A DNA stretch of 64,000 bases from a virus (Duplodnaviria; Heunggongvirae; Uroviricota; Caudoviricetes): IMG/VR virus record IMGVR_UViG_3300035703_000003; one strand, given 5' to 3'. The translations under genes and the position numbers were made by a program. How positions within the stretch are numbered: position 1 is the stretch's first letter; each line of letters starts with the position of its first letter. Shown here piece after piece: positions 1,712 to 14,691 of the stretch. The notes under the pieces are model-generated. The model worked only from the letters and a program-made list of their open reading frames with translations, was not told the origin of the DNA and did no database searches.

Positions 1712-1736
1712 AAAAAAGCGCCAGTTAAGGCGCTTT
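1712..1736 (-). terminator. Intrinsic terminator
   Basis: AAAGCGCC/GGCGCTTT stem running into a U-tract on the minus strand, downstream of the operon. Confidence 0.75.
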
Positions 1737-1754: not shown

Positions 1755-2051
1755 TTAGTTACCTTGCAACGCTTGCTCAACAACAATGTTTTTAACAGCA
1801 TCTCCGAGGTCTTCGCTATCACTTATTACATATAGCGATGTTCTTGAATTATCAGTTTTGCGATCATATTTGTGATACTGAACAACTCGTCCGCCACGTG
1901 CAGGAAAGACACGTAAAGTGTAACAATCTGCGTCGATATCTTCCATCGAAGAACCCTTACGACCACCTACCGATTGAACAAGAACACCTCCTCGCTCTTC
2001 GTCTCTGGCGTCGTTGACCCATTTAACTATAAGTTTCTTTAAAAATTTCAT
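1755..2051 (-). CDS. Conserved-type phage hypothetical protein
   Basis: ATGA overlap with the folE stop. Confidence 0.7.
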   Translation of the reverse strand: MKFLKKLIVKWVNDARDEERGGVLVQSVGGRKGSSMEDIDADCYTLRVFPARGGRVVQYHKYDRKTDNSRTSLYVISDSEDLGDAVKNIVVEQALQGN

Positions 2052-2731
2052 TTTGTAAATTCCTGTTGTAGCTTGATATTATCCATAAATTCTTTTTTGG
2101 TGCCCATATCGTCTTTGAATGCCCCTTTAAGCACTGTAGTTTGTGTCAATGAGCTATGTGCCATAATGCCCCTATTCTCACAACATCCATGCGTCGCCTG
2201 TATATAAACACCTACATCTTTACTGCCGGTTGCTTTGCTAATCTCACGAGCAATATCCATTGCAAGTTCTTCTTGTAGTGTGCCACGTCGAGCGCACCAC
2301 TGTGCAATACGTGTATACTTGCTTAGACCAATTAGTGTATCTGCAGCAATAATACCAATATATGCAACACCTTTAACTGGCTGGTGATGATGCGAACACA
2401 TGCTAATGATTTCACTACGAACTACTAACATGCCAGTATATGGTTCGTCTGTGTGATTAGGAAATGCTGTAGCATTTGGCATTGGATAGTAGCGACCAGA
2501 CATAAGTTCTTTAACATACATCTTAGCTAGTCTGCGTCCTGTTTCCATACTGTTAGGATCGTTTTTACGATCAATAACAAGACTGTCGAGGACATCTTCG
2601 AACTTATCAGTTAGTTCGTCAATTAGTTCATCTAGTTCACCCTCTTTGACGAACTTGCTGATATTGTCACCTGCCCAATATCTGCTGCCAGCTTCTTCAA
2701 TACGCTGTTTAATTTTTTTACTTGTTTTCAT
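2048..2731 (-). CDS. folE: GTP cyclohydrolase I
   Basis: Motifs SMCSHHHQP, GLSKYTR, LQEEL and ATHGCCENRG. Confidence 0.95.
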   Translation of the reverse strand: MKTSKKIKQRIEEAGSRYWAGDNISKFVKEGELDELIDELTDKFEDVLDSLVIDRKNDPNSMETGRRLAKMYVKELMSGRYYPMPNATAFPNHTDEPYTGMLVVRSEIISMCSHHHQPVKGVAYIGIIAADTLIGLSKYTRIAQWCARRGTLQEELAMDIAREISKATGSKDVGVYIQATHGCCENRGIMAHSSLTQTTVLKGAFKDDMGTKKEFMDNIKLQQEFTK

Positions 2732-2765
2732 TTTCTGCTCCTAGTTATAGACGGCGAGACGTCTT

Positions 2766-3860
2766 TTACATATTATCTTTAATAGTATCGTATAATTTAG
2801 CACCACTAAAGAAATTTGTCGATAGTTTTTCGACATTTGTATTTAGGTAATTGTGGTAGTTTTTATGCTTTTCCACATACTTCTTTAGTTGGTCTGCTAC
2901 CTTGTGCTTGTTTGCTTGATAGCTATCCCAATTTTCAGTCCACTCACTAGGATACTTAAACACATCGTCATACATTTCACTGTATGACAAACGATCGGGC
3001 ACCATTGGAATTGCATCGACTAGCATACCTTCATATGCACTAATGCCAAGTGTTTCTTGCAAGTTAGCACTAAACACAACCTTTGCTTCGCCTAGTAGAT
3101 TATGATATTCAATTTTTGTTAGATCACGTTCCTGACAAACAATGAATTCATACTCGGGCAGTAGTGTTGCAAGATCCTTAAAGATGTCTAGTTGCTTTTC
3201 AGGAGCAAGCCTGTGAGGAAATAGAACGATATCCTTCTTTTCCATGTTCTTATACGGAGTAAGTGTTGCTTCCATATATTCCATTGGCCAGCCTACGACT
3301 TTGACATTGTCTTGCTGTAGGAACCATTCAACTGGGGTCATACCAAACATGCTTTTAAATTGCAGCAAGTTTTCTGCAAAGATTTTAGCATGGAATTCTG
3401 TAGCAAAGAAGTTGTCATCATATGTAAAGAACATACTTTTCTCTGCATGACGAACCCAAGGTTTATCGCCAACAAGACGTCCTAGGAAATCTGCGGGATC
3501 ATAAGAGCCGGCATGCCATAGACCGCCAATCTTAATCTTTACTCCTAGCAGTTCTGCCATGTAACGTAGTTGAATAACGGTAGGGTTCCAAGCATCTGTG
3601 TAAAGGAAGTAGTCTCCGTCCTTTACTGTGCCTTTGCAAAACATTTCACCGATCTGCATAAGCTGATTTGATTTGTAAACGTTAGTGCCACCAAAGTTAA
3701 GGAAAGCCCCAGGCGTTGTAGCCTGAGGCGTTTCCCCACCGGAGATTACCACAACATCAGTGTCGGGTAAATGGTTCTTTAGTTGCACCGGTAGATGCGA
3801 CTTCCACTGTTTAGTGTAACGTGTATCTACTGCTTCGATGTCAACGATAAAGATTGTCAT
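2766..3860 (-). CDS. GT-B glycosyltransferase (family 4-like)
   Basis: FPHRLAPEKQ and ETLGISAYEG (ExxGxxxxE) motifs. Confidence 0.75.
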   Translation of the reverse strand: MTIFIVDIEAVDTRYTKQWKSHLPVQLKNHLPDTDVVVISGGETPQATTPGAFLNFGGTNVYKSNQLMQIGEMFCKGTVKDGDYFLYTDAWNPTVIQLRYMAELLGVKIKIGGLWHAGSYDPADFLGRLVGDKPWVRHAEKSMFFTYDDNFFATEFHAKIFAENLLQFKSMFGMTPVEWFLQQDNVKVVGWPMEYMEATLTPYKNMEKKDIVLFPHRLAPEKQLDIFKDLATLLPEYEFIVCQERDLTKIEYHNLLGEAKVVFSANLQETLGISAYEGMLVDAIPMVPDRLSYSEMYDDVFKYPSEWTENWDSYQANKHKVADQLKKYVEKHKNYHNYLNTNVEKLSTNFFSGAKLYDTIKDNM

Positions 3861-4168
3861 ACTGCTTTATTCACCCATGGTGCTTGAAACACACCGACGT
3901 GAATTTTTAGCTTTTTAGCACTGCGGTCTGCAGCCATTTTAACTGCGACATCATATGTAATTGCAGTGTCACGGATAGTGCTAAGAATAGTGTAGTCTTG
4001 AATTTTATCTTCGATTTGCAAATCCTTTAGATAAGCACTAAACAGATTGCGAATTTTGCTTTCGCTAGTAGGCTTCTGATCAAGAATACCATCATATGGT
4101 TCGATGATCTTAATAAGATCATACTTGATGTCGTTAATGCTTACACGGGTTTGGTCGAATTTATTCAT
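3857..4168 (-). CDS. Hypothetical protein
   Basis: Coupled ORF; start probably MNKFDQ (4168). Confidence 0.65.
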   Translation of the reverse strand: MNKFDQTRVSINDIKYDLIKIIEPYDGILDQKPTSESKIRNLFSAYLKDLQIEDKIQDYTILSTIRDTAITYDVAVKMAADRSAKKLKIHVGVFQAPWVNKAV

Positions 4169-4538
4169 AGCTGCACGATGCTCCATTTTCATTGTCTTCA
4201 CTTACTTTGATGTTGAGTTTACGGTTAGGATATTTAGAGTTGATAATTTCTGCGAGTTCATCACAAATCATTTCGCAGGACTTGTAATCGAGTTGCAAAG
4301 TTCCGTTTGCATAGAGACTTTCCAGCCATCTCTTGAATTGGATAAATTCAATGTCTCGATCGTTGTGGAACACTTCAATTTCAATTTTGAAGTGGAAAAT
4401 ATGACGATGTGGATAGCCTAAAAAGCTAACGTCATATTCGTCACCAGTAGCCAGACCAGGATCTGTTAGTGCTGCTGGATATTTGTGGATACCTTCTTTC
4501 TGAAAGGTAACCCAAATGCTGTTTGCAGTTTTGTTCAT
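4161..4538 (-). CDS. queD: 6-carboxytetrahydropterin synthase / PTPS-like T-fold protein
   Basis: HRHIFHF Zn-ligand motif, SCEM and VSEDNENG; lies next to folE. Confidence 0.7.
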   Translation of the reverse strand: MNKTANSIWVTFQKEGIHKYPAALTDPGLATGDEYDVSFLGYPHRHIFHFKIEIEVFHNDRDIEFIQFKRWLESLYANGTLQLDYKSCEMICDELAEIINSKYPNRKLNIKVSEDNENGASCSYE

Positions 4539-4539
4539 A

Positions 4540-4716
4540 TTACTCGTCGTCGTCGGATTCTGTAACTACAGAAAGTTTCTTTTCTAGGCGCTGCATAGTT
4601 TGTAGCAGTTCCCACATTTTCCAGTCCATTGCTTTTGCAAGTTCTAGAATTGTTTTGTTGAAGTCTTCTGGCACGTGCTCTTCGACTTCATCAATTACTC
4701 GAATCTTTTTAACCAT
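4540..4716 (-). CDS. Small hypothetical protein (58 aa)
   Basis: Below the ORF-track cutoff. MVKKIRVIDE...DWKMWELL, GGAG RBS, fills the operon gap. Confidence 0.7.
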   Translation of the reverse strand: MVKKIRVIDEVEEHVPEDFNKTILELAKAMDWKMWELLQTMQRLEKKLSVVTESDDDE

Positions 4717-4891
4717 TGTGTTCTCCGGTGATGTTTTGTTCGATTTTCGTTAGTTCTTGTTTAACTTGTAGTTTCTGTTTTTTCAACACAGTAATTTCAT
4801 TGTCTGTATTGTTATGTTTATACAACTCGTTAATACGATTGTCAAGTTCTTTATGTTTAGTTTGTAGGCTTTTTATTCGATCTTGGAGCAT
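4709..4891 (-). CDS. YdcH/DUF465-like coiled-coil protein
   Basis: HKELDNRI...LKKQKLQVKQEL pattern. Confidence 0.7.
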   Translation of the reverse strand: MLQDRIKSLQTKHKELDNRINELYKHNNTDNEITVLKKQKLQVKQELTKIEQNITGEHNG

Positions 4892-5312
4892 TTTCTACCC
4901 TTTCTCTCAAATCAGATGTGCTAAATCTGTGGTCACGCTTGTTAAAATACAAGTCGATGCCACGCTTGTTACAAATGTCCTTGCCAGTAAAATCTTTGTC
5001 TTTGTATTCTTCTCCTAGAATTCGGATATCGATTTCATACATATTTAGAATGTCTTTGAGATCTTGTTCTGTTTGATACGGAATAATTTCGTCAACATAC
5101 TTTACAGCCGCAAGTTGTGCATAACGTTCAACTAGTGTTTGTACAGGCTTATTTTTAGTATCTGCCCTGTCTAGAGTAGGGTCTGTTTGAATGCCAGCGA
5201 TAAGATAATCGCAGTGGTTTTTAGCTTCACGCAACATTGCCACATGACCTGCATGAAGCAAATCAAATGTGCTAAATGTAATACCAACTATTCTTTGACT
5301 TCTTTTTTTCAT
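4857..5312 (-). CDS. Glycerol-3-phosphate cytidylyltransferase-like (TagD family)
   Basis: FDLLHAGH (HxGH), VKYVDEII and RDHRFSTS motifs. Confidence 0.85.
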   Translation of the reverse strand: MKKRSQRIVGITFSTFDLLHAGHVAMLREAKNHCDYLIAGIQTDPTLDRADTKNKPVQTLVERYAQLAAVKYVDEIIPYQTEQDLKDILNMYEIDIRILGEEYKDKDFTGKDICNKRGIDLYFNKRDHRFSTSDLRERVENAPRSNKKPTN

Positions 5313-6436
5313 ATAGTTACAACCTCTAACGGAGGAAACCCATTAAATGCAACCGAACTGTATGTTGTTGTATATGCTCCGCAGTTCAACACAATAAATC
5401 TGTCACCTGATGCCAAGTCAGTTGGCAGCTCTACTTTGTTTTTCTCGTAAAGCACATCGGCACTATCACATGTAGGGCCAGCTAAAATACATGGTGCAGT
5501 ATCGTTAGCATCAGTATCTGGAGTTAAAAACTGATACTTAATAGCTTCTTGTTCTGTTTCTGCAAGTCCGTGAAACTTACCAATATTCAGATATACCCAA
5601 CGAACTGGATCATCATCATGCTTACGACTTACAAGCAATACTTCTGCAGCAATTGCACCGGCATTTCCTACTAGTCCACGCCCTGGTTCTGCCATAATGT
5701 ATTCTACATCACCGAATCGTTCTTTAACTGCATCGATGATGCTAGATCCATACTCTTCTGGCTCGGTAATGTCAACACCGTAGTATGCAGGAAAGCCACC
5801 ACCAATGTTTAACAGTGTAAGGTTAAATCCTTCTTCCTTTGCATTATTCCAAATGCCACTTACAAAATCCAAGATGTCATACCACATATGGGGATGTCTA
5901 GTTTGACTACCTACGTGAAAGCTAACACCGACTGGCTCTAGTCCTGCTTCTTTTGCAGTATGCATTAGTGGAATAACCATACTGCTACTACAACCGAATT
6001 TGCGACTTAGTGGCCATTCTGCTTCTGTGCTGCGAATAAGAATACGAATGAATACTTTACTGCCAGGTGCATATTTTGCAACTTTTTGTATTTCTTCTTC
6101 AGCATCGACTGAGAATAGTGTAATGCCTTTTTCGTGTGCAGAAACAACATCTTGCCAGCGTTTTACAGTATTGCCAAAACTAATGTGTTCAGGTTTTGCA
6201 CCTGCTTTCAAACACATATCAATTTCACCAATACTAGCTGCATCGAATCTACAGCCTAGTTTGACTAGTTTTTTTAAAATTTTAGGATGCGGGTTTGCTT
6301 TAACTGCATAATGAATATGAGCTTCTGGCATACCTGCTTTAAGCCGAACATAGTTTTCTTCTACTTGATCTACATCTAATACAAGTGTAGGACGTTCGAA
6401 TTCTTTTTTGTTAATGTGTTTAATGATCTTATTCAA
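5309..6436 (-). CDS. Ornithine/lysine decarboxylase (fold-type III PLP enzyme)
   Basis: YAVKANP, SRKFG, FHVGSQ, IGGGF, EPGR and GPTCDSAD motifs. Confidence 0.93.
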   Translation of the reverse strand: MNKIIKHINKKEFERPTLVLDVDQVEENYVRLKAGMPEAHIHYAVKANPHPKILKKLVKLGCRFDAASIGEIDMCLKAGAKPEHISFGNTVKRWQDVVSAHEKGITLFSVDAEEEIQKVAKYAPGSKVFIRILIRSTEAEWPLSRKFGCSSSMVIPLMHTAKEAGLEPVGVSFHVGSQTRHPHMWYDILDFVSGIWNNAKEEGFNLTLLNIGGGFPAYYGVDITEPEEYGSSIIDAVKERFGDVEYIMAEPGRGLVGNAGAIAAEVLLVSRKHDDDPVRWVYLNIGKFHGLAETEQEAIKYQFLTPDTDANDTAPCILAGPTCDSADVLYEKNKVELPTDLASGDRFIVLNCGAYTTTYSSVAFNGFPPLEVVTI

Positions 6437-6941
6437 TTACAGTGTCTCCTACGTAATCATCCCAATCAGTATAAACTTTGCGTTGTTGTAGTTGATGCAA
6501 GCTATGACACCACACACCTTGGTTACTGTGACCCCATGTAGTATCGTCTAGTTTAAGTGTAGCATTATAATTGAAATGCCTAATGTATGGCAACTTAACA
6601 CTAATCATACTGATAAAGGTGTTATACTCGTCGTATCCGGATTCTAGCACACCTTCTGCATATTTAACATCAAAGTCTAAGGTGCACCAATAACCTTCTT
6701 TTAGTAGAGGTTTAATCATATCTTCCCATGCCAAATATGCGCCAGGATGTTCGGGATTAAAACTTTGGCTTGTGCCAAAATATAGATGTTTAATATTATG
6801 TGCATCAGCCCGTTGCTTGATTTCTTCCCACGGTTCGATGCCAACTACGAACAATGTTTTTTGATTATACATTGCAGTGTGTTCAACTTCTGTGCCGATA
6901 AAATACACTACGTCTTGACGTTCTTCTGTGTTTAATCCCAT
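6429..6941 (-). CDS. Hypothetical protein in the modification cluster
   Basis: Overlapping, coupled ORF. Confidence 0.75.
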   Translation of the reverse strand: MGLNTEERQDVVYFIGTEVEHTAMYNQKTLFVVGIEPWEEIKQRADAHNIKHLYFGTSQSFNPEHPGAYLAWEDMIKPLLKEGYWCTLDFDVKYAEGVLESGYDEYNTFISMISVKLPYIRHFNYNATLKLDDTTWGHSNQGVWCHSLHQLQQRKVYTDWDDYVGDTVIE

Positions 6942-7846
6942 TTGATATAACCTCTATTATAGCCTGCCAGACGATTCACTGCATCAGCAAAGGCTTGTTT
7001 CCATTCTGTGTTTCTATTATAGCCACAAGTCCACGTATTGTCTACATTTAATTTACCAGACTCGATGTGTGTTACTGCTAGTTTCATCGACGGTAAGAAC
7101 TTCTCGCTTCTCGGACTAGGGAAACACATAGTAACATTTTTCCAAAGCCAATTACCAAACGTAGTTGTATAAGCAGATAGTTTTTCTGCAGCCATAATAA
7201 TCAATGCGTTTTCGGCAACATTTGCTTGTTGTAGTGTGTTATGTTCACTTAGGTCAATGATAACATCATATTCACAATCTGCAGGCTTGTGTAGCAACAA
7301 ATGCCAATACTTGATGTTACTGCTACCTACAACATCTATATCAAAGTGTAAATCTAAGTTTGATAGTGTTTGATGAACTACTTTAGCTAGAAAGCCTGTG
7401 CCAATAATGCATAGCCGTCCGCCATCACGTTTTTTAAATTCGTCTAAACTGTTTAAAATAATATTAACACCACATGCAACTGGTTCGATAATGTATTTAG
7501 GATCTAATTCTGGAACAGTTACATATGTTCCTTTCCTTGCAACATAATAGTCTGCATACGCAGGTTCACCACGTGTAGCTACATACTCGCCTGTTGCAAC
7601 ATTAATACCCAGACCTTCGTGACCATGCATACTTGCAGGTAACAGTTGAAAGTCACCTTGCATCATTGCAATGTCACTACGACACACACCTGTCATTGCT
7701 GCTTTGACAAGTATATCGCCGTCGTTTATTTCTGGTATAACATATGTGCTTTCGTAAAAAGCACCATTACCATCCGTTACTAATGCTCGGACAGTGCTTC
7801 CAACTGTTGGTGAATCCATAAATCCATATCCTTTTGTTGTTGCCAA
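6932..7846 (-). CDS. Zn-dependent (MDR family) alcohol/sugar dehydrogenase
   Basis: GVCRSD, GHEG, EPVAC and a GTGFLA Rossmann motif; start uncertain. Confidence 0.8.
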   Translation of the reverse strand: MATTKGYGFMDSPTVGSTVRALVTDGNGAFYESTYVIPEINDGDILVKAAMTGVCRSDIAMMQGDFQLLPASMHGHEGLGINVATGEYVATRGEPAYADYYVARKGTYVTVPELDPKYIIEPVACGVNIILNSLDEFKKRDGGRLCIIGTGFLAKVVHQTLSNLDLHFDIDVVGSSNIKYWHLLLHKPADCEYDVIIDLSEHNTLQQANVAENALIIMAAEKLSAYTTTFGNWLWKNVTMCFPSPRSEKFLPSMKLAVTHIESGKLNVDNTWTCGYNRNTEWKQAFADAVNRLAGYNRGYIKWD

Positions 7847-8643
7847 AACTCTTCGTTATTTTCGTTATCAAGTGCAGTTTGAATCATAGATTGATATGCT
7901 TCTTCTGGACATAGACCTAGTTCAAATGTTTTGTCATCTACGTGTATTGCGATATCATCGCCATTCATACTGCGCCAGTCTGCAACACAATTGTATTTTT
8001 CATTATATTGCAACATGCAGTAGTCGTCAACGTTATAAATTCCTTTTGGATCTACTTCGCCATAACCGCTATCGGCAACACTATCTAGGGTCCATCTTTG
8101 CTCTAGTTTACGATCAGTAACAGTGCTATCTTTCCAATCAGGATTTAGCATTTGATATAAACTTAGCATGTGTGGCATCAAGTCTCTGCTTACTCCACCA
8201 AATGCAGAATGTTTTGCAGTAAACCAACTACCTGGCTTTGGTATTCTATTATTGTTAATCCAATGAAAATTAATAACAGATGCATCGGTAGCTGCATCTT
8301 GCATTTCTTTGATGTTGCTACGATATTGATTGTTTTTAGTCATCATAATCCTAGTTTTAGAATTATCCTTTAGCAAATCTTCCCAATGGGACGATGTTGC
8401 TACACCAGGTTTTTCTACAAACACAAACTTAGATACTTTTGCTGCCTTGTCTGACAATACGTAATGTGAATAGTTTGGGGTGCAAATATGAACAGTATCG
8501 TATCTATCTTTGACGTCGTCAAAAGTTTTATAGTTTGCTTCTTTGTTGAATGGGTCAAGATATTCAATACCCCAACCCATATTTTTGTATATATTTCCGT
8601 ATAGAACTTTACCAAAGCCCATACCTACAATAAGTGTTTTCAT
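7780..8643 (-). CDS. Gfo/Idh/MocA family oxidoreductase
   Basis: IVGMGFG, ICTPNYSH, VEKP and GGVSRDLMPH motifs. Confidence 0.85.
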   Translation of the reverse strand: MKTLIVGMGFGKVLYGNIYKNMGWGIEYLDPFNKEANYKTFDDVKDRYDTVHICTPNYSHYVLSDKAAKVSKFVFVEKPGVATSSHWEDLLKDNSKTRIMMTKNNQYRSNIKEMQDAATDASVINFHWINNNRIPKPGSWFTAKHSAFGGVSRDLMPHMLSLYQMLNPDWKDSTVTDRKLEQRWTLDSVADSGYGEVDPKGIYNVDDYCMLQYNEKYNCVADWRSMNGDDIAIHVDDKTFELGLCPEEAYQSMIQTALDNENNEEFWQQQKDMDLWIHQQLEALSEH

Positions 8644-8646
8644 TTC

Positions 8647-10116
8647 TTACTCAAATAATGCGTTAAATTGTGCGCTACTGTTGACAGTTTTCTTACCAAC
8701 AGCACCTCTAGTTCCAACAACTTTCATCCATAGACGTTCGTGACTATCTACAAATGCTAGTGCTTCGTCACGATTCTCGAACTCAAAAGCTCGTGCAATA
8801 ACATCTTTAACTTCAGTTCTATCAAACTGTTCATCTACTAGCATGTTAGGATAAGTGCCGCCATCGTATGCACGATTTGCTGCTTGAACACTGTTAATAT
8901 GCGTATACACATTGTGATTCATCATAAGTGAATATGCAAAGCTATCCCAACTTGTTTTAGTTGACACACCCATACGATTTAAGTCTGTTGGATTATAGTG
9001 ACATATATCGTTAACTTTCAAACCATTAGTTATAGGTGTAGGCATCCAATCCGGATAAATTTTAGTTAGCAAGTCGTTATAAGGACTAGTATCAGTTGCT
9101 AAACCTTTGTCGTCTGGAGCATCGTTCATCATATAACTCCACTTGCCACCTTGCTCTAGACGATGACCTGTGTATACTTGACCATTAGCTGTGCATAAGA
9201 ATGGACTTGCACAATCGAATGTAATAGTAAAGTTTTCGTTATAGTTTTTACGAACTGCTCGCTGTATTGCAGTAAGCACCAATGCCCATTCTAGTTTACT
9301 TGTTCCGAGGAAGTGCATAAAGTCATGCACACCTTTTTCTAGCAAACCATCATGTATAAGTGTTATTACACGCTTAAGTGCAAGATGGATATCACACATA
9401 TTTTGTCCACCCATTGCCCAACCATTAAAGTGAGCATCTGGATATTTTTTAGGATCGCAATATTCCTTAACTTGACTATACCAGTCGTCTGCTTGTGCGA
9501 AGTTTTCGCCTTGCAATACGTTTAGGAATTTACAATTACCGTTACGATTTCTGATAAAGTAATCGTTATTAATACGTGTTCCATCAACAGCTTCTTGATA
9601 GCTGCTAATCTTACTTGCCTTAGCACCTTCCGGGCTACGGCTTACCCACGCAGGAATATCTAAGATCATACCATAGTCCATAAAGGCGTCCATCCATTCT
9701 AGAACGCCTTTACGCTTTTTCATTGCATTTGGGCAAGCAGGATCTTTCCAATCTCCTTCCCATACACCTTTACCAATTTGGAACCCTCCACTGTCTCCTA
9801 AGATCCAGCTAGTGTTTTTGTTTCGATCACGATACATGTCCTCACGAAACATATCTTTAGTAAGGTCTAGACTAGCATGACCTGCACTATGTAGACTCCA
9901 CTTGTATTGCCATAGGCCTTGAGGATCTAGCCAGTTTAGGCTTTCCACTCCGTTAGGCATACTTGCAGGGATTCGTGCAGGATCAATATATGGATTGCCT
10001 TCAATTAATCCACGACGCTGTCTCCCTACAAACAGCGCATAGAATGTGCTAAGTGCAGGGAGAAATATAGCGTAATCGTTTTGTGTTGAAGTTAAGTCAG
10101 TGTTTAGTTCATTCAT
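8647..10116 (-). CDS. dpdA: TGT-family transglycosylase, DpdA-like (7-deazaguanine DNA insertion)
   Basis: GDSGGFQ, LDIP, VLQG, HFLG and FDCASP TGT-like motifs; clustered with folE/queD and replication genes. Confidence 0.75.
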   Translation of the reverse strand: MNELNTDLTSTQNDYAIFLPALSTFYALFVGRQRRGLIEGNPYIDPARIPASMPNGVESLNWLDPQGLWQYKWSLHSAGHASLDLTKDMFREDMYRDRNKNTSWILGDSGGFQIGKGVWEGDWKDPACPNAMKKRKGVLEWMDAFMDYGMILDIPAWVSRSPEGAKASKISSYQEAVDGTRINNDYFIRNRNGNCKFLNVLQGENFAQADDWYSQVKEYCDPKKYPDAHFNGWAMGGQNMCDIHLALKRVITLIHDGLLEKGVHDFMHFLGTSKLEWALVLTAIQRAVRKNYNENFTITFDCASPFLCTANGQVYTGHRLEQGGKWSYMMNDAPDDKGLATDTSPYNDLLTKIYPDWMPTPITNGLKVNDICHYNPTDLNRMGVSTKTSWDSFAYSLMMNHNVYTHINSVQAANRAYDGGTYPNMLVDEQFDRTEVKDVIARAFEFENRDEALAFVDSHERLWMKVVGTRGAVGKKTVNSSAQFNALFE

Positions 10117-10118
10117 TA

Positions 10119-10850
10119 TTATTTGCTTTGAGCAGGTAGGATATATTCGTATACCGCAAGACCGTTATCTACGGTAATCATAGCTGCACCCATATCGCTA
10201 AACTGCATAGTGATATTTCCACTTAGTGATAGAATGCTCAATACTTCAACAATCGGATATTTCCATCCTTGCTTTAGTTCACCTGTAACGCTAGCTTGGA
10301 ATACAAAGTTACCAGTGTGACCGCTGTCGTCGCCGAAGTAAAACTTAAGATCACTACCTTCAGTCTTAGCAACGAATACAACTTCTTCACCGTTAGCTTG
10401 TGACTGGAATTTGAAGCGTTGTGTGCTAGCACTGCTTGGCTCTAGTGTAACATTCCAGTTTGCACCTTTAAAGCGAACACTTGCTAGTTTTTCTTCCATT
10501 AGTTCTTTTTGCATAAAGCGGAAGTCGTTCTTAAAGTCGCCTGTTGCATTTTCAAAGTGCATACCGAATGGTTCTTTTTCACCATTACGATCACGAGTAG
10601 TGACAGAGATCTTAGCATTTTCTTTGTATTCCGGAATGTTAAGAATAACGTTTAGTTTACTAAGATTAGGAAGACCAAATGTTCCTTCTAGACCTGGAAT
10701 TGGCTTTTTGTATCTTGCACGGACAACAACCTTATTGTCGTCATCCTTTGCTTCGACTGTAGTTGTTTCATCATTTGTGATTACTTTAACTGCTTCAATA
10801 TTGCTAACACCTTTTGTGTGTTTAACGATATCAAGTAGATAGTCTCTCAT
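10119..10850 (-). CDS. Putative DNA polymerase sliding clamp (gp45/PCNA-like)
   Basis: About 240 aa, FGLPNLSKL and C-terminal YEYILPA; near the DNA polymerase. Confidence 0.65.
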   Translation of the reverse strand: MRDYLLDIVKHTKGVSNIEAVKVITNDETTTVEAKDDDNKVVVRARYKKPIPGLEGTFGLPNLSKLNVILNIPEYKENAKISVTTRDRNGEKEPFGMHFENATGDFKNDFRFMQKELMEEKLASVRFKGANWNVTLEPSSASTQRFKFQSQANGEEVVFVAKTEGSDLKFYFGDDSGHTGNFVFQASVTGELKQGWKYPIVEVLSILSLSGNITMQFSDMGAAMITVDNGLAVYEYILPAQSK

Positions 10851-11083
10851 GTGTTTGTCCTCTTTATAAGTTTAACTTTGTAGCTGCCTAGTGTGCGTTC
10901 TAATGTAAATTCACGCACCTTTGTATTTAGACGAAGCCATTCTTCGATTTCGTCTTTTATAGCGCCTTGTCCGCAAATAACTCTACAATATGTATAATTT
11001 CCATAATAACATTCATTTATGAAATTAGCAATCTTTTTCCATGCTTCATGTATATGAAAACCATGTAAATCTATAGTAGGCAT
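10847..11083 (-). CDS. Stand-alone Smr domain protein
   Basis: MPTIDLHG...RVICGQG...GSYKV; start reassigned to 11083. Confidence 0.8.
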   Translation of the reverse strand: MPTIDLHGFHIHEAWKKIANFINECYYGNYTYCRVICGQGAIKDEIEEWLRLNTKVREFTLERTLGSYKVKLIKRTNT

Positions 11084-11084
11084 C

Positions 11085-11633
11085 TTAGAAACGAATGTTG
11101 AACTGCGCTCTGCGGTTAATTCTCCAGCAACCTTCATTAGAATCAATGCATATCGGTCTTTCTTTGCCGTATGACAACACACCGATGCGATCAGCGACAA
11201 CACCGTTGTTTACTAAAATTTGCTTAACTGATTCTGCTCTGTCTTTGCCCAGACCTAAGTTATATTCTCTTGTTCCACGCTCGTCTGCATAACCTTCGAT
11301 AATTACTGTTGCACTTGCGTTCTTCTGCAAGAATTCAATGACTGGGGTTAAGTTAGCAACTTCTTCTGCTGATAGTGTATTGCTATTAGAGTCAAAGTAA
11401 ACTGCAAAATTGTTTAGATTTGCTGCTTCGACCATAGCACTAAGTTCGGCTACTTGCTGCTCTAACGTTTTGATTTGGGTTTGCAGATCGCCGTCGGTCT
11501 TAGACAATTGCGTAACAGCATCGGTAATCTGATCGTTTACATATGCTTTGATATCTTCTTGTGTTGTAGTTGTTTGTGCAGATGCTACTGATGCTCCTAG
11601 TAGTAGTGCTGCAATTATACTAAGTTTTTTCAT
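11085..11633 (-). CDS. Secreted OmpA/Pal-type peptidoglycan-binding protein
   Basis: Signal peptide, coiled coil, VYFDSNS, IEGYADERGTREYNLGLG and NRRA motifs. Confidence 0.9.
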   Translation of the reverse strand: MKKLSIIAALLLGASVASAQTTTTQEDIKAYVNDQITDAVTQLSKTDGDLQTQIKTLEQQVAELSAMVEAANLNNFAVYFDSNSNTLSAEEVANLTPVIEFLQKNASATVIIEGYADERGTREYNLGLGKDRAESVKQILVNNGVVADRIGVLSYGKERPICIDSNEGCWRINRRAQFNIRF

Positions 11634-11648
11634 ATTTCAATCCTTTTA

Positions 11649-14348
11649 TTATCCGAAGTCAAACAAACTTTCGAAAGTAGTTTTATCTTCAGCCTTACTT
11701 AAATCCCAGCCCATAACACCTAGCAAGTTTTCAATCTTTTGTGTAATGATGCCTTCTTCCATTTCGTCTATATCAAATGGTAGTTCTTTAAACCATTCAG
11801 CTAAACGACCTTCGTCGGTCGGATAACCTATGCTTGTAAATCCCATTGGATTTGCTTTTAGTTTACAAACAATAGTTTTCATACCGTCCATAATTTCAAT
11901 GCTATACTTGTCGCCGTTTAATCTACGCAAACGGTTATAGTTGATTGCTGCACGGACATGACCTGGCATGTTAAATTTGCCTTTGTAAATTTCATTGCCT
12001 GTATGCGGATCTGTCATAAACTCTTGGCTGTAGTAATAAGTTAACTTGTTAACACGCTTAGGAGTTCCTTTAAGCCACGGAGGCATTGCTCTGAACTCTT
12101 GACGGAAATCAATGATACGATCAATGATATCGCTTTCCTTTGTGCCAGTTAGTGTTTTGAGCAGTAACTCACTTAAGAAGTCTTGCATAAACGCAGGCGT
12201 GTCACTTCGCTTAAGATCGAGACCCATAGCTTTAATTTTACCAGGCTTATCGTTTTGATCTTCTCTGTGACCTTCCGAATCATATACAAGAATAGCGTAG
12301 CGTTTTTTAGTAATGAAAATGCCTGCACTAGCACATACTTCACGACCTGCAGCAATAATTTTGCCTTGGTCTGGATTTATTACATTGTGTGCAGTTCTCA
12401 TGTAATCAGGGAATGTTGTATTTGCTTCGTTTGATACTGTGTCATACAACTCAGTTACTTTTTCTTTATTCCATTCAAACTCGCCCGATTCAATTTGCTT
12501 TTTGAATACCGGATAAGCACTAAAGTATACAGAGTCAGTATCCCCGTATATAATAGAATCGCCCTTATGGTCATATGCTCCGGTAAACAATTCGTTTACT
12601 TTTGCTGCCATGTGTCGTGCAATACAACGTCCTGTAAGTGTTGTAGATTGACCTAATCGTCCGTCGTTAAATCTTGATCCAGGATTGAGAACAGCGCCGT
12701 ATAGTGAGTTAAGGTTAATCTTCTTAACTAGCTGTCGTTTGTCCCAAAATGCAAATTGTTCGTCGTCTACACCTTTGAACTCTTTTGCTTTTTTCTGCAA
12801 CTGTTTACGTTCGCTATACCAGCGTTCTAGCAGTCCAGGAATAATACCTTTACGATCTTGTGTAACAATTGTCCCGTTAGCTGTTAACACCCAATTTTGA
12901 TCTCCATTGAAGATAATGTCGTATATTTCTGCTCCGGTTGCAGGTAGTTCTTCGCCATTTTCAAAATCAATATACAATAAGACTTCGTTGTCTTTCTCCA
13001 TCACAAGTTCGTATTCAGGACAAGCAAATCTGCCTTCCCATGCTTTTGCAACTTCCCAGTCGTGTTCTTGTAACAGCTTAACAGTAAGTGTGTGCCGCAA
13101 TTGACCAACAATAGTTTCTGTTGACATGTTAGTGCTACGCAAGATACTAGGATACAGCGAGTTTAAGTCCATTGAACCAATCCACTCGTGATAACCTTTA
13201 ACAGGAGTAGCAACATACGCACCTGCTGCAGTTACCGCCTGTGGATAACCTTTTTGAACTTTGTTATGTTCCTTGTCGGGAACAATGTAGCCACGCTGGT
13301 GTGCTTCGTTTACAATTGCTTGGTCGGTAACCGCAACTGCACCCATCGTAGTTTGAATAAGAACCGTATTATCGTGTGCAATAACGTTAGCTAAGTCAAT
13401 GAACTGTAGCTTTTTGTCTAGCTTAACTAATAGTTCAACGTCTTGCCTGTTATAGTCAATAAACGTAAAGAAGTCGTTGTTGTATAGTTGATCTAGTGTG
13501 CCTTCGTATGCAATTTTACGTTCGTTAAGTTCGTATTCACCGATTGCATCTAATGAATAGCTGTGCATTTCATGATACGTATACTTGCGATACAGTTGCA
13601 TATAGTCCAAATGTATTCTGCCAAGTGTATCAAACGTTTCCTGCATTTTACCAAAACGCTCAAACTCTCTGCGCTTAGGATATTGATGCCATAAACAAAA
13701 ACGACGAGTATGCTCTTTACCAAGAACTCTTGCTACACGATTAACGATATATGGAATGTCGAAGCCTTCCGAGTTCCAGCCTGTTAAAACGTCTGCATCT
13801 TCGACTAAGTTAAGAAATGTATCTAGCAGTTCTTCTTCATTTTCCATTAGTAGAGTGTCGTCAAACTTTTCTACAATTGTTTGTGCGTCTGCTCTACTAA
13901 GTGTTTTTGGTTTGCATACAAGACATATAGTCTTTTTAATCCAGTTTAAATGAACAGCAATAGCAGTGATCGGATTAAATGGATCACTAGGATCAGCAAA
14001 GCCTTTATCTTTATCAAAGTCAACTTCAATGTCGAAAAACGCAATGTTTAGCTTTGGCGGTTCTTTGCCTAGATAGTTTTCTTCAAAACAACGAAAAACA
14101 GGATTAATGTCACTTTCGTATAGTTTCTGGCCGCTATATAGTTTCTTTTCTTTTTGAAATGCTTTGTTACTAGATGTGATAACACGATCTAGTTTTTCGC
14201 CAAAGATACTTTCAAATTTACCACGACTATCCTTGTAATAGAAAATATAACGGGCAGGGTATTCTCTATAATCCCTGCGACCGTTATTTCTTTCAACAAC
14301 ATGGATTATGTCACGATCCCTATCGAATAGGGCGTCCACATATGACAT
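11649..14348 (-). CDS. Family B DNA polymerase (T4 gp43-like)
   Basis: FDIEV exonuclease motif, DLNSLYPS, KINLNSLYG, YGDTDS and KKRYA. Confidence 0.97.
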   Translation of the reverse strand: MSYVDALFDRDRDIIHVVERNNGRRDYREYPARYIFYYKDSRGKFESIFGEKLDRVITSSNKAFQKEKKLYSGQKLYESDINPVFRCFEENYLGKEPPKLNIAFFDIEVDFDKDKGFADPSDPFNPITAIAVHLNWIKKTICLVCKPKTLSRADAQTIVEKFDDTLLMENEEELLDTFLNLVEDADVLTGWNSEGFDIPYIVNRVARVLGKEHTRRFCLWHQYPKRREFERFGKMQETFDTLGRIHLDYMQLYRKYTYHEMHSYSLDAIGEYELNERKIAYEGTLDQLYNNDFFTFIDYNRQDVELLVKLDKKLQFIDLANVIAHDNTVLIQTTMGAVAVTDQAIVNEAHQRGYIVPDKEHNKVQKGYPQAVTAAGAYVATPVKGYHEWIGSMDLNSLYPSILRSTNMSTETIVGQLRHTLTVKLLQEHDWEVAKAWEGRFACPEYELVMEKDNEVLLYIDFENGEELPATGAEIYDIIFNGDQNWVLTANGTIVTQDRKGIIPGLLERWYSERKQLQKKAKEFKGVDDEQFAFWDKRQLVKKINLNSLYGAVLNPGSRFNDGRLGQSTTLTGRCIARHMAAKVNELFTGAYDHKGDSIIYGDTDSVYFSAYPVFKKQIESGEFEWNKEKVTELYDTVSNEANTTFPDYMRTAHNVINPDQGKIIAAGREVCASAGIFITKKRYAILVYDSEGHREDQNDKPGKIKAMGLDLKRSDTPAFMQDFLSELLLKTLTGTKESDIIDRIIDFRQEFRAMPPWLKGTPKRVNKLTYYYSQEFMTDPHTGNEIYKGKFNMPGHVRAAINYNRLRRLNGDKYSIEIMDGMKTIVCKLKANPMGFTSIGYPTDEGRLAEWFKELPFDIDEMEEGIITQKIENLLGVMGWDLSKAEDKTTFESLFDFG

Positions 14349-14369
14349 TATTATTCCTTAAAGTGTGAA

Positions 14370-14633
14370 TTATTCAGTTGCACGACCAACTGCATGAAGC
14401 ACTTCTTCTACTTCATTAAAACCGTCTTTGACTTTTGCAAATTCGTTTTTGTAAGCAATTTTGATTGCTTTATTGATAACTGCAGGCTTAAGGTCTAGTT
14501 CTTCTGAAATAGCCTTAACAGTATCCGACAACCCGCCACGTAGTGTTTCGAGCTCTGCCGTTACTTGGATACCTTCTTGGATGATTTGTTTAAGTTTTGT
14601 AATTTCGCTTTCGCTAAATGATCTGGTAGGCAT
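14370..14633 (-). CDS. Small dsDNA-binding protein (T4 DsbA/GapR-like)
   Basis: 87-aa helical protein with the pattern LSDTVKAISEELDLKPAVINKAIK. Confidence 0.55.
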   Translation of the reverse strand: MPTRSFSESEITKLKQIIQEGIQVTAELETLRGGLSDTVKAISEELDLKPAVINKAIKIAYKNEFAKVKDGFNEVEEVLHAVGRATE

Positions 14634-14662: not shown

Positions 14663-14691
14663 AATATATGTTATATTTGCACGGTTGTCAA
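14663..14691 (-). promoter_or_regulatory. Sigma70-like promoter heading the replication/modification operon
   Basis: TTGACA-N17-TATATT. Confidence 0.7.

Follow-up and report, generated by a model that had tools for sequence, protein, structure and literature searches.

Organisation of the gene run

The locus occupies positions 1755–14633 of a 64-kb stretch of viral DNA (64,000 nucleotides), which is referred to below as the window. The tightly coupled gene run proposed in a preliminary description is real: all ORFs named there were found on the minus strand at the positions given below, with a gene spacing of −67 to +34 nt and a sole exception of 318 nt, a stretch occupied by two small ORFs of 60 and 58 aa. 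The following features were distinguished.

14663–14691, minus strand: sigma-70-like promoter match, TTGACA-17-TATATT (11 of 12 positions agree)
14370–14633, minus strand: 87-aa conserved small protein at the head of the PolB operon (phrog_12534; weak match to a transcription-regulator phrog)
11649–14348, minus strand: family B DNA polymerase, PolB (Pfam DNA_pol_B and exonuclease domain)
11085–11633, minus strand: OmpA-family protein with a signal-like N-terminus (Pfam OmpA, 69 bits)
10847–11203, minus strand: Smr-domain protein (Pfam Smr, 44 bits)
10119–10850, minus strand: probable sliding clamp (Atlas neighbours; phrog_12062, function not assigned)
8647–10116, minus strand: predicted Zn-less TGT-fold base transglycosylase, divergent and DpdA-like, with a disordered C-terminal QFNALFE tail (predicted structure)
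7780–8643, minus strand: Gfo/Idh/MocA oxidoreductase, sub-lineage accessory (Pfam, 29.5 bits, N-terminal domain)
6932–7846, minus strand: MDR/Zn-dehydrogenase-like protein, sub-lineage accessory (ADH_N, 27.6 bits)
6429–6941, minus strand: conserved 170-aa protein, core module member, fold without assignment (synteny)
5309–6436, minus strand: PLP-dependent lysine/ornithine-type decarboxylase (Pfam, 175 bits; PDB 2plj, 1e-52)
4857–5312, minus strand: small sugar-phosphate nucleotidyltransferase, RfaE domain II/TagD-like (Pfam, 57 bits; NCBIfam, 2e-22 and 4e-20; phrog_7878, 1e-34)
4540–4891, minus strand: the two small ORFs in the only gap
4161–4538, minus strand: DpdL, a QueD paralogue and proposed 7-carboxy-7-deazaguanine decarboxylase (hhalign and signature)
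3857–4201, minus strand: 114-aa protein, no assignment, specific to the Gfo sub-lineage
2766–3860, minus strand: GT4-type GT-B glycosyltransferase with EX7E, E269...E277 (predicted structure and invariant residues)
2048–2731, minus strand: GTP cyclohydrolase I, FolE (Pfam, 132 bits; NCBIfam, 140 bits)
1755–2051, minus strand: 98-aa protein, no assignment, final gene ahead of the terminator (ORF list and Pfam)
1715–1736, minus strand: intrinsic-terminator-like hairpin followed by a T run (consensus match)

Consensus matches exist both for the promoter at 14691 and for the terminator at 1736 that were thought to bound the run. Terminator-like sites are enriched (20 observed, 10 ± 3 in shuffles), but promoter-like sites overall are not above shuffles (45 observed, 51 ± 8 shuffled). 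A purine PRTase suspected nearby (1177–1656) found no support in Pfam and phrog searches.

Replication genes

Synteny was surveyed in 80 related viral contigs, and the counts given here cover the loci where the flank allows. The DNA polymerase was confirmed by Pfam as a PolB, 43–48% identical to PolB of jumbo phages and ending in FESLFDFG. The 87-aa protein is encoded upstream of PolB in 62 related loci, as well as in phages PA5oct, Phosso and Vibrio 2.275.O. Between PolB and the clamp lie a lineage-specific insert encoding the OmpA-family protein, seen only in the closest relative, and a sub-lineage insert with the Smr gene (4/80 loci plus the Gfo lineage). The clamp call can be held as probable at most: the product of 10119–10850 has no Pfam and no PDB match, but its Atlas neighbours, on which the identity rests, are named as PCNA-domain proteins or gp45 sliding clamp (score 0.95–0.97, TM 0.96). 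The gene precedes the TGT-like gene in 77/77 loci.

Transglycosylase

The gene at 8647–10116 starts 2 nt after the clamp gene in the PolB operon and encodes a protein of 489 aa. The earlier call of a TGT/DpdA-like gene stands for the TGT fold of the predicted structure, but HMM classification gave no match to either TGT or DpdA. The AF2 model (pLDDT 84) matched TGT in Foldseek at 7e-8, and the VIA comparison with the TGT fold gave Z 17.9 along some 300 residues. Among solved structures, the nearest are without exception tRNA-guanine transglycosylases, and the BFVD matches include phage TGT/DpdA-type proteins, among them those of nt-1 and phiST. As in bacterial DpdA (Salmonella Montevideo Dpd; PMC10164549) and TGTs, a TIM-barrel TGT fold is predicted and the three active-site Asp motifs (general acid/base, base recognition, nucleophile) are kept, D108, D153 and D301 being invariant. 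Unlike those enzymes, the protein has long insertions, a clamp-peptide-like tail and no DpdB partner; it also lacks the Cys triad and with it the zinc site (CXCX2CX22H), which is said to be conserved across DpdA and TGT. The conserved disordered tail QFNALFE resembles the C-terminus of PolB. The product is probably a divergent DpdA with a TGT fold, the fold being apparent by structure only.

Genes of 7-deazaguanine synthesis

The FolE call was confirmed, and FolE was found in 27/28 related loci. The gene at 4161–4538, taken earlier for QueD-like, proved to encode DpdL, known from the 7-deazaguanine system of phiST as a paralogue of QueD: hhalign to phiST CGPG_00067 gave a probability of 98.7% (E 2e-16), the LxxxHRHxF signature of DpdL is present and the catalytic Cys is absent. 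DpdL occurs in 60/60 related loci; its decarboxylase activity is a prediction. No canonical QueD turned up in the window, nor did one in several of the relatives.

It was noted before that the window contains neither QueE nor QueC, and this is true for its 64 kb. For QueE the absence is an effect of the window edge, which cuts before the gene: in the closest relative, QueE lies about 2.9 kb beyond the window start and about 5.6 kb past FolE, and it is present in 22/27 related loci. Near-complete relatives, one of them 85% complete, lack QueC, as do PA5oct and Phosso.

Glycosyltransferase

The GT-B fold of the glycosyltransferase (GT) was confirmed by structure only. Its AF2 model (pLDDT 87.5) matched BshA, MshA, PimA and the BH4 glucosyltransferase in Foldseek (1e-9, TM 0.65), and UDP-glucose:tetrahydrobiopterin glucosyltransferase 5zes is among the matches at 1.6e-8. 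The nearest GT4 structures use small-molecule acceptors. Since the targets of GT4 enzymes are mostly small molecules or lipids, the GT may belong to the synthesis of a different product. To our knowledge, 7-deazaguanine has no obvious hydroxyl for a glycosyltransferase, and this counts against the sugar step.

The GT is nevertheless an obligate companion of the transglycosylase. It accompanies the TGT-like gene in 53/53 viral loci and in cultured phages PA5oct, Phosso and ACP17, the last with a different DpdA-like protein, and the pair is adjacent in 17/17 alphaproteobacterial loci. These lack the rest of the phage context; in the two examined, which are mobile islands with an integrase or resolvase, the pair is the neighbour of a YhhQ-like precursor transporter, and no FolE or PTPS match was found among the island genes tested. 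Since the GT always occurs with the transglycosylase, a sugar-bearing deazaguanine, as suggested in the preliminary description, is a reasonable prediction; the phage DNA may carry such a purine, which is not described in the papers searched.

Accessory genes

The domains of the Gfo/Idh/MocA oxidoreductase and of the Zn-dehydrogenase were both confirmed. The Gfo product has weak PDB matches to aldose oxidoreductase and glycoside 3-oxidase DgpA. All 10 homologue loci of Gfo found are inside the module, which agrees with the suggested part in modification, but this holds for a sub-lineage only (Gfo in 6/69 loci; MDR in 6/64, always paired with Gfo). The 170-aa protein occurs in 69/69 loci and has homologues in PA5oct (46%) and ACP17 (30%), with no Pfam, PDB, PADLOC or Atlas assignment.

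The ornithine decarboxylase call was confirmed as a PLP-dependent Lys/Orn-type enzyme, the nearest solved structure being 2plj. The gene was found inside the module only in the closest relative and in none of the 47 loci with enough flank, out of 80; elsewhere it occurs in unrelated contexts (17/18 viral contigs, likewise Phosso). It is a mobile auxiliary gene that landed in the operon, a passenger separate from the modification genes. The similarity behind the cytidylyltransferase call was upheld, but its membership in the module is supported only in part: the nucleotidyltransferase is present in 43/80 loci, where its gene usually has another place in the operon than here, most often between those of PolB and the clamp. 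Its gene overlaps that of the decarboxylase by 4 nt in the window and in the closest relative.

Comparison with known systems

PolB, the clamp, the TGT-like protein, the 170-aa protein, DpdL and the GT are encoded in every related locus wherever the flank allows. Cultured PA5oct, Phosso and ACP17 share the gene set. Pseudomonas jumbo phage PA5oct (Wroclawvirus) has, besides QueE, homologues of four proteins, namely the TGT-like protein (35%), GT (49%), DpdL (61%) and 170-aa protein (46%), but no Gfo, MDR, decarboxylase or nucleotidyltransferase gene at the locus, and its 170-aa gene is about 27 kb away. PA5oct DNA was reported as probably G-modified: it withstands enzymes whose restriction sites contain G, and it is attacked by END nucleases, a type directed at hypermodified phage genomes (PMC12191111). 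The setting differs in Vibrio phage 2.275.O, whose member of the TGT-like family is found beside QueC, QueF and Gat-QueC.

The dDG system of phage phiST (FolE, QueD, QueE, DpdL, DpdA3; PMC10516641) is likewise QueC-less with FolE and QueE, its DpdL is 37% identical and shares the signature, and its TGT-superfamily transglycosylase adjoins polymerase genes, as here. The differences are that the present transglycosylase cannot be recognised as DpdA3 from its sequence (hhalign 2%) and matches it in fold alone (7e-4), that phiST lacks the GT4 glycosyltransferase and the 170-aa protein, and that the present module is embedded behind the clamp with no canonical QueD found nearby. Among cultured DpdL phages, a GT homologue at a distance of about 3 kb or less is found in the PA5oct group, Phosso, ACP17, X1, BUDD, BCSR5 and BUCT-ZZ01; the plain dDG phage phiST has none.

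The T4 alpha- and beta-glucosyltransferases acting on 5-hydroxymethylcytosine DNA also have a GT-B fold and are encoded with modification and replication genes of a large phage; the role proposed here, post-replicative sugar addition against restriction, is similar. The present GT differs in being GT4-like with EX7E, its predicted acceptor would be a purine analogue rather than 5hmC, and its activity is predicted. Huimycin and dapiramicin biosynthesis (bioRxiv 10.64898/2026.04.15.718813) gives a precedent for a glycosyltransferase that adds a sugar to a 7-deazaguanine-type base, although these glycosylated 7-deazapurines are free actinomycete secondary metabolites made from preQ0 without nucleic-acid insertion machinery.

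Interpretation

The 7-deazaguanine DNA-modification module co-operonic with the replisome, as first proposed, is supported. It seems probable that the run combines the replisome core of an uncultured marine jumbo phage of about 350 kb with a QueC-less DpdL-type deazaguanine system having a divergent DpdA and probable sugar addition. The TGT fold and Asp motifs, DpdL homology, the EX7E of the GT-B enzyme, FolE, synteny, the bacterial pair, the tail likeness and PA5oct DNA argue for this reading; a transglycosylase with neither a Zn site nor an HMM match, the failure to find canonical QueD, the merely predicted activity of DpdL, the usual acceptors of GT4 enzymes and the tentative clamp call argue against it.

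From these folds, motifs, homologies and gene linkages we infer which substrates are used and how the steps follow one another, and also that DNA is modified and a sugar added. FolE, the QueE encoded shortly beyond the window and a QueD supplied by the host or by another part of the genome would yield 7-carboxy-7-deazaguanine, which DpdL, by the proposed decarboxylation, would convert to 7-deazaguanine. In phage DNA that has just been synthesised, the Zn-less TGT-fold enzyme would replace guanine with the deazaguanine base; a C-terminal peptide that binds the clamp, similar to the one of the polymerase, would probably keep the enzyme at the fork. The linked GT would add a sugar to the base before or after insertion. 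The 170-aa protein may have a part in the modification, its role being left unassigned. The Gfo and MDR dehydrogenases, together with the nucleotidyltransferase, probably serve in this sub-lineage to produce or modify the activated sugar donor, and the decarboxylase would be an unrelated insertion.

It is rather unlikely that the system is a plain dDG one of the kind known from Cellulophaga phage phiST, in which the 7-deazaguanine stays unadorned, the GT and sugar/redox enzymes act on something else, for example a small metabolite or a glycan of the host envelope, and operon history is all that links them to it. The GT-less phiST pathway, the small-molecule acceptors of related GT4 structures and the lack of an obvious glycosyl acceptor favour it, but the constant GT linkage in viral loci, in three unrelated cultured phage groups and in bacteria speaks against it. 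Decoration with a polyol or with putrescine/cadaverine, where, for example, the nucleotidyltransferase-like enzyme would activate the carboxyl of 7-carboxy-7-deazaguanine for coupling to the decarboxylase product, an amine, is improbable. Amide-linked deazapurine natural products exist, the two genes overlap, and the nucleotidyltransferase weakly resembles pantoate ligase, an enzyme that adenylates a carboxylate (E 0.0013, short of the cut-off); it is, however, a far better match to sugar-phosphate or glycerol-phosphate nucleotidyltransferases. The putrescine branch is unsupported: the preliminary description itself named failure of the accessory genes to co-occur with dpdA as a refutation, and the decarboxylase was not detected in the 47 of 80 related loci that had enough flank.

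Action on host or phage tRNA in a queuosine- or archaeosine-type pathway, which the structural neighbours of the transglycosylase would suggest, is very improbable given its place in the PolB operon, its PolB-like terminal peptide, the lack of a Zn subdomain, the vicinity of DpdL as a marker of DNA systems and the G-modified behaviour of PA5oct DNA; no tRNA gene was found in the 64-kb window. Hardly any weight falls on a pterin glycoside, formed by FolE and a PTPS-like T-fold enzyme and glycosylated by a BGluT-like GT as in cyanobacterial biopterin glucoside synthesis. The 5zes match and the presence of FolE with a QueD/PTPS paralogue fit this pathway, but the T-fold protein shows the DpdL signature and lacks the catalytic Cys, the conserved partner genes include QueE and a base transglycosylase, and on the bacterial islands the GT is found together with the TGT-like gene and the transporter. 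If the DpdL-type system with sugar addition is the true one, the phage DNA would bear a sugar-linked purine that is not described in the papers searched.

Gene Organisation and Source Phage

The genes between 14633 and 1755 form one minus-strand series of tightly spaced ORFs, with intergenic distances of -67 to +34 nt and a sole larger gap of 318 nt, which is occupied by two small ORFs. The preliminary description, which placed base-modification genes in one run with the replisome, was largely right as an observation.

Features of the gene run
14691-14663, minus strand, sigma-70-like promoter match (strong, of a class no commoner here than in shuffled sequence)
11649-14348, minus strand, family B DNA polymerase (PolB)
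10119-10850, minus strand, probable sliding clamp
8647-10116, minus strand, TGT-like protein
7780-8643, minus strand, Gfo/Idh/MocA protein (Gfo)
6932-7846, minus strand, MDR dehydrogenase (MDR)
6429-6941, minus strand, 170-aa protein
5309-6436, minus strand, PLP decarboxylase
4857-5312, minus strand, nucleotidyltransferase
4161-4538, minus strand, DpdL (125 aa)
3857-4201, minus strand, 114-aa gene
2766-3860, minus strand, glycosyltransferase (GT, 364 aa)
2048-2731, minus strand, FolE
1736-1715, minus strand, hairpin with a T run (sequence match)

Pfam supports PolB, an OmpA-family protein, an Smr protein, the Gfo/Idh/MocA N-terminal domain, ADH_N, the cytidylyltransferase-like protein, FolE and both PLP decarboxylase domains. 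FolE scores 132 bits with PF01227 (cut-off 27) and 140 bits with the NCBIfam FolE models, which is under their equivalog cut-offs. The nucleotidyltransferase is similar to RfaE domain II and to TagD. The product of 10119-10850 has no Pfam or PDB profile match; the neighbouring Atlas clusters bear the names PCNA-domain or gp45 sliding clamp, with PF09116 on 10-16% of members, and it is probably a sliding clamp. PDB-sequence profile searches also gave nothing for DpdL, GT or the 170-aa protein, and PADLOC matched no module protein. The OmpA-family protein, which has a signal-like N-terminus, and the Smr-domain protein are encoded in the interval separating PolB from the clamp (10847-11633); the OmpA gene was otherwise seen solely in the closest relative. 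Between the nucleotidyltransferase and DpdL (4709-4891) come two short ORFs, one of 60 aa with a coiled coil and one of 58 aa that is acidic. The ORF at 1177-1656, taken earlier for a purine PRTase near the module, had no Pfam hit at E <= 0.01, only a weak PHROG match of unknown function and no similarity to the PRTase of Cellulophaga phage phiST, and that assignment was not borne out.

No close DNA relative of the window was found among cultured phages. The polymerase shares 43-48% identity with its counterparts in Sinorhizobium phage Phosso and in Rak2/CBB-type jumbo phages. Related viral contigs reach 256-302 kb with CheckV completeness estimates of 72-85%, which makes the source a marine jumbo phage with a genome of some 350 kb. 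The remainder of the window (16543-64000) encodes a ClpB-like AAA+ chaperone, DnaJ, PhoH, a UvdE UV endonuclease, a sigma-70 region 4 protein, an NAD-ligase-like N-terminal domain, an HNH nuclease and three proteins with peptidoglycan-binding domains; no tRNA genes were found in this part.

A TGT-Fold Protein without the Zinc Site

The product of 8647-10116 had no match in Pfam (E <= 0.01), NCBIfam or PADLOC (E <= 1), including TGT PF01702 and the PADLOC DpdA, nor in PHROGs, and yet its relatives at E <= 0.001 number more than 7000, and the top 120 are at least 62% identical. A structure model built on 25 relatives (pLDDT 84) is a (beta/alpha)8 TGT-type barrel. Foldseek matched it to the TGTs of Z. 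mobilis and mouse (7e-8), and the VIA comparison with TGT gave a Z of 17.9 and an rmsd of 4.3 over 301 aligned residues. Thus, the earlier assignment of this gene as TGT/DpdA-like found no counterpart among TGT or DpdA HMMs, but is upheld by structure at the level of the fold. Among predicted viral structures (BFVD), the model matches phage TGT-fold proteins, among them a protein of Vibrio phage nt-1 (7e-10), which appears to be the published DpdA2 of that phage, and phiST DpdA3 (M4SLA5, 7e-4). At the sequence level, comparison with phiST DpdA3 (CGPG_00065) gave an hhalign probability of 2%, with a QG...HFLG stretch alone aligned, and nothing with tblastn.

The DpdA and TGT families share three invariant Asp residues and a Zn site. 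The Asp residues are kept in the TGT-like protein, where D108 (DSGGFQ), D153 and D301 (FDCASP) show no variation among 25 sequences. The residue of E. coli Tgt aligned with D301 is the nucleophile Asp of its MFDC motif, and D108 and D153 were given active-site roles (acid/base, base recognition) by motif. The Zn site CXCX2CX22H, in contrast, is missing: the same 25 sequences have no invariant Cys triad, and the segment opposite CDCxxC of E. coli Tgt is without Cys.

Although modelled as disordered, the C-terminal 19 residues are conserved (Q483, F484, L487, F488). This tail reads QFNALFE, and the C-terminus of PolB reads FESLFDFG. Judging from these sequences, the C-terminal peptide may dock on the sliding clamp and tie DNA modification to it. 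Base exchange on DNA is the predicted activity of the enzyme, given its location in the clamp operon, its PolB-like tail and its linkage with DpdL. The protein would then be the missing DpdA of these phages, a Zn-less TGT-fold enzyme invisible to current HMMs and presumably acting on DNA.

DpdL and the Glycosyltransferase

The 125-aa protein described earlier as QueD-like aligns with phiST CGPG_00067 (hhalign probability 98.7%, E 2e-16, 108 columns; tblastn 1e-11) and does not align with phiST QueD. It carries the signature L40-G-Y-P-H44-R-H46-I-F48, that is LxxxHRHxF, with conserved His and Phe residues; in DpdL this motif replaces the CxxxHGH motif of QueD (PMC10516641). DpdL is a proposed 7-carboxy-7-deazaguanine decarboxylase, an activity that is only predicted (PMC10516641). 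In the relatives' loci, DpdL co-occurs with the DpdA-like protein, FolE and QueE and without QueC, the window itself being without QueE.

The model of GT (pLDDT 87.5) shows a two-Rossmann GT-B fold. It is nearest to the GT4 enzymes BshA (5d01, 1.3e-9, TM 0.64-0.66), MshA and PimA, and a tetrahydrobiopterin glucosyltransferase is also among the matches. The EX7E motif of GT4 enzymes is present as E269 and E277, neither of which varies across 24 sequences. The protein remains under the gathering score of Pfam Glycos_transf_1 (16 bits vs 26.4). The 170-aa protein received no Atlas assignment, and hhalign detected no relationship to phiST CGPG_00066 or to the Phosso 'glycosylase'.

Conservation of the Module in Related Viral Loci

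Synteny was analysed in 80 IMG/VR loci with TGT-like genes sharing 60-76% identity with that of the window.

Occurrence of module genes, counted in loci with enough flank for each gene
Clamp: 77/77
PolB: 55/55
170-aa protein: 69/69
DpdL: 60/60
GT: 53/53
FolE: 27/28
QueE: 22/27
Gfo: 6/69
MDR: 6/64
Decarboxylase: 0/47
Nucleotidyltransferase, any position: 43/80, mostly between PolB and clamp

A search seeded with Gfo gave 10 loci, all with a gene order identical to that of the window. The decarboxylase-seeded search gave 18 contigs, with the gene inside the module in the closest relative only; the Phosso copy lies ~120 kb from the Phosso module. The counts and seeded searches together define a core of the TGT-like protein, the 170-aa protein, DpdL, GT and FolE, close to which QueE lies. 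Gfo, MDR, the 114-aa gene and the nucleotidyltransferase in its altered position are hallmarks of a sub-lineage, and the decarboxylase is a passenger gene. The interpretation offered earlier, a 7-deazaguanine module extended with sugar, polyol and polyamine enzymes, is right in kind as to a deazaguanine module with a sugar enzyme. Of the accessory genes expected to co-occur with the transglycosylase, GT, DpdL and the 170-aa protein proved constant, Gfo and MDR are confined to the sub-lineage, and polyamine decoration is rejected on the distribution of the decarboxylase. The name ornithine decarboxylase was itself fair: the protein scores 175 bits with PF02784 and 52 bits with PF00278, and its best PDB match is the Vibrio lysine/ornithine decarboxylase 2plj (1e-52), ahead of ornithine and diaminopimelate enzymes.

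A YhhQ-like queuosine-precursor transporter adjoins FolE in several loci (L005, 17310-17867; also L004, L006, L042, L056, L073, L077 and L112), and some phages of this clade may also salvage deazaguanine bases. A conserved protein of ~200 aa follows QueE in most relatives (L023, 16264-16551, and ~25 other loci) and in PA5oct (EST35_0324); it was not detected in the window and possibly belongs to the pathway as well.

No QueE, QueC or PTPS-family QueD was found in the window. In the closest relative contig, PolB is 96% identical and the gene order matches down to the first ORFs of the window; QueE lies there ~5.6 kb past FolE, which places QueE ~2.9 kb past the left edge of the window. The previously reported lack of QueE and QueC in the window thus stands, but the absence of QueE does not carry the meaning attached to it. 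The Pfam Radical_SAM model misses the QueE of this lineage, and family-based calls of QueE absence are accordingly unreliable. QueC was not found in an 85%-complete relative, PA5oct or Phosso, in keeping with a DpdL system of the QueC-less kind. True PTPS genes are present in some relatives and were not found in others. Four contigs of relatives (G001, G002, G009 and G012, which carry loci L016, L033, L110 and L120) each show between 11 and 20 matches to Radical_SAM (E <= 0.01); the open frames concerned are some 230-670 aa long, and many form tandem arrays, e.g., at ~159-187 kb of G002.

Homologous Modules in Cultured Phages and Bacterial Islands

A single locus of PA5oct contains the TGT-like gene, GT, DpdL and then QueE; its 170-aa gene is at another position. 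Phosso has PolB, clamp, DpdL, GT, FolE and QueE together, with the TGT-like gene elsewhere. The 156-kb Acidovorax phage ACP17 encodes QueD, FolE, a 170-aa homologue, a different 424-aa DpdA-like protein, GT, DpdL and QueE. In Vibrio phage 2.275.O, the TGT-like family is paired with QueF, QueC and Gat-QueC and there is no GT; the genes after the TGT-like gene in this phage and in Phosso are not GT homologues. Among cultured DpdL phages, a GT homologue occurs within ~3 kb in seven groups, unlike phiST, whose DNA contains plain dDG (7-deazaguanine) and which is without a GT homologue.

In bacteria, a GT homologue adjoins a TGT-like homologue in 17/17 alphaproteobacterial loci; the latter is not matched by canonical Tgt. 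On mobile islands in Shimia and Pelagibacterium, the pair, of which the TGT-like member is invisible to Pfam, is accompanied by a YhhQ/Vut_1-like transporter and lies near an integrase or resolvase (L159, 7492-10557; L153, 6089-9035). The bacterial pair with its transporter provides independent support for a functional GT/transglycosylase pair using a salvaged deazaguanine precursor, and the island is possibly a host self-modification system. The Shimia island has an ABC-3C defence system next door and is followed by a gene for a 585-aa unknown protein and a second GT1 gene.

Predicted Modification and Its Significance

No description of glycosylated deazaguanine in DNA was found in the literature searched, where all 7-deazaguanine DNA modifications have small 7-substituents. 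To our knowledge, the known sugar-bearing DNA bases are pyrimidines. Glycosylated free deazapurines are known, e.g., huimycin (bioRxiv 10.64898/2026.04.15.718813). The DNA of PA5oct is reported to resist several restriction enzymes having G in their sites, and END nucleases, which are aimed at hypermodified phage genomes, hit this phage (PMC12191111, preprint). The same preprint names QueE and PTPS for PA5oct, with no transglycosylase and no sugar.

A tentative joint reading, possible rather than probable, is that these phages, PA5oct, Phosso, ACP17 and the mobile islands of marine and soil Alphaproteobacteria bear glycosylated 7-deazaguanine in DNA. A Zn-less DpdA tethered to the clamp, acting with its partner GT4 enzyme, would introduce the base at the replication fork, and in the sub-lineage of the window the Gfo and MDR dehydrogenases, along with the nucleotidyltransferase, would modify the putative sugar further. 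A sugar-bearing deazaguanine would account for both the restriction resistance of PA5oct DNA and its sensing by END nucleases. A GT is locked to a deazaguanine transglycosylase in more than 50 marine jumbo-phage contigs, therapy-relevant PA5oct-like phages and bacterial islands; such linkage predicts DNA bases of a new class and, if this is true, glycosylated 7-deazaguanine would be the first genomic purine analogue with a sugar attached.
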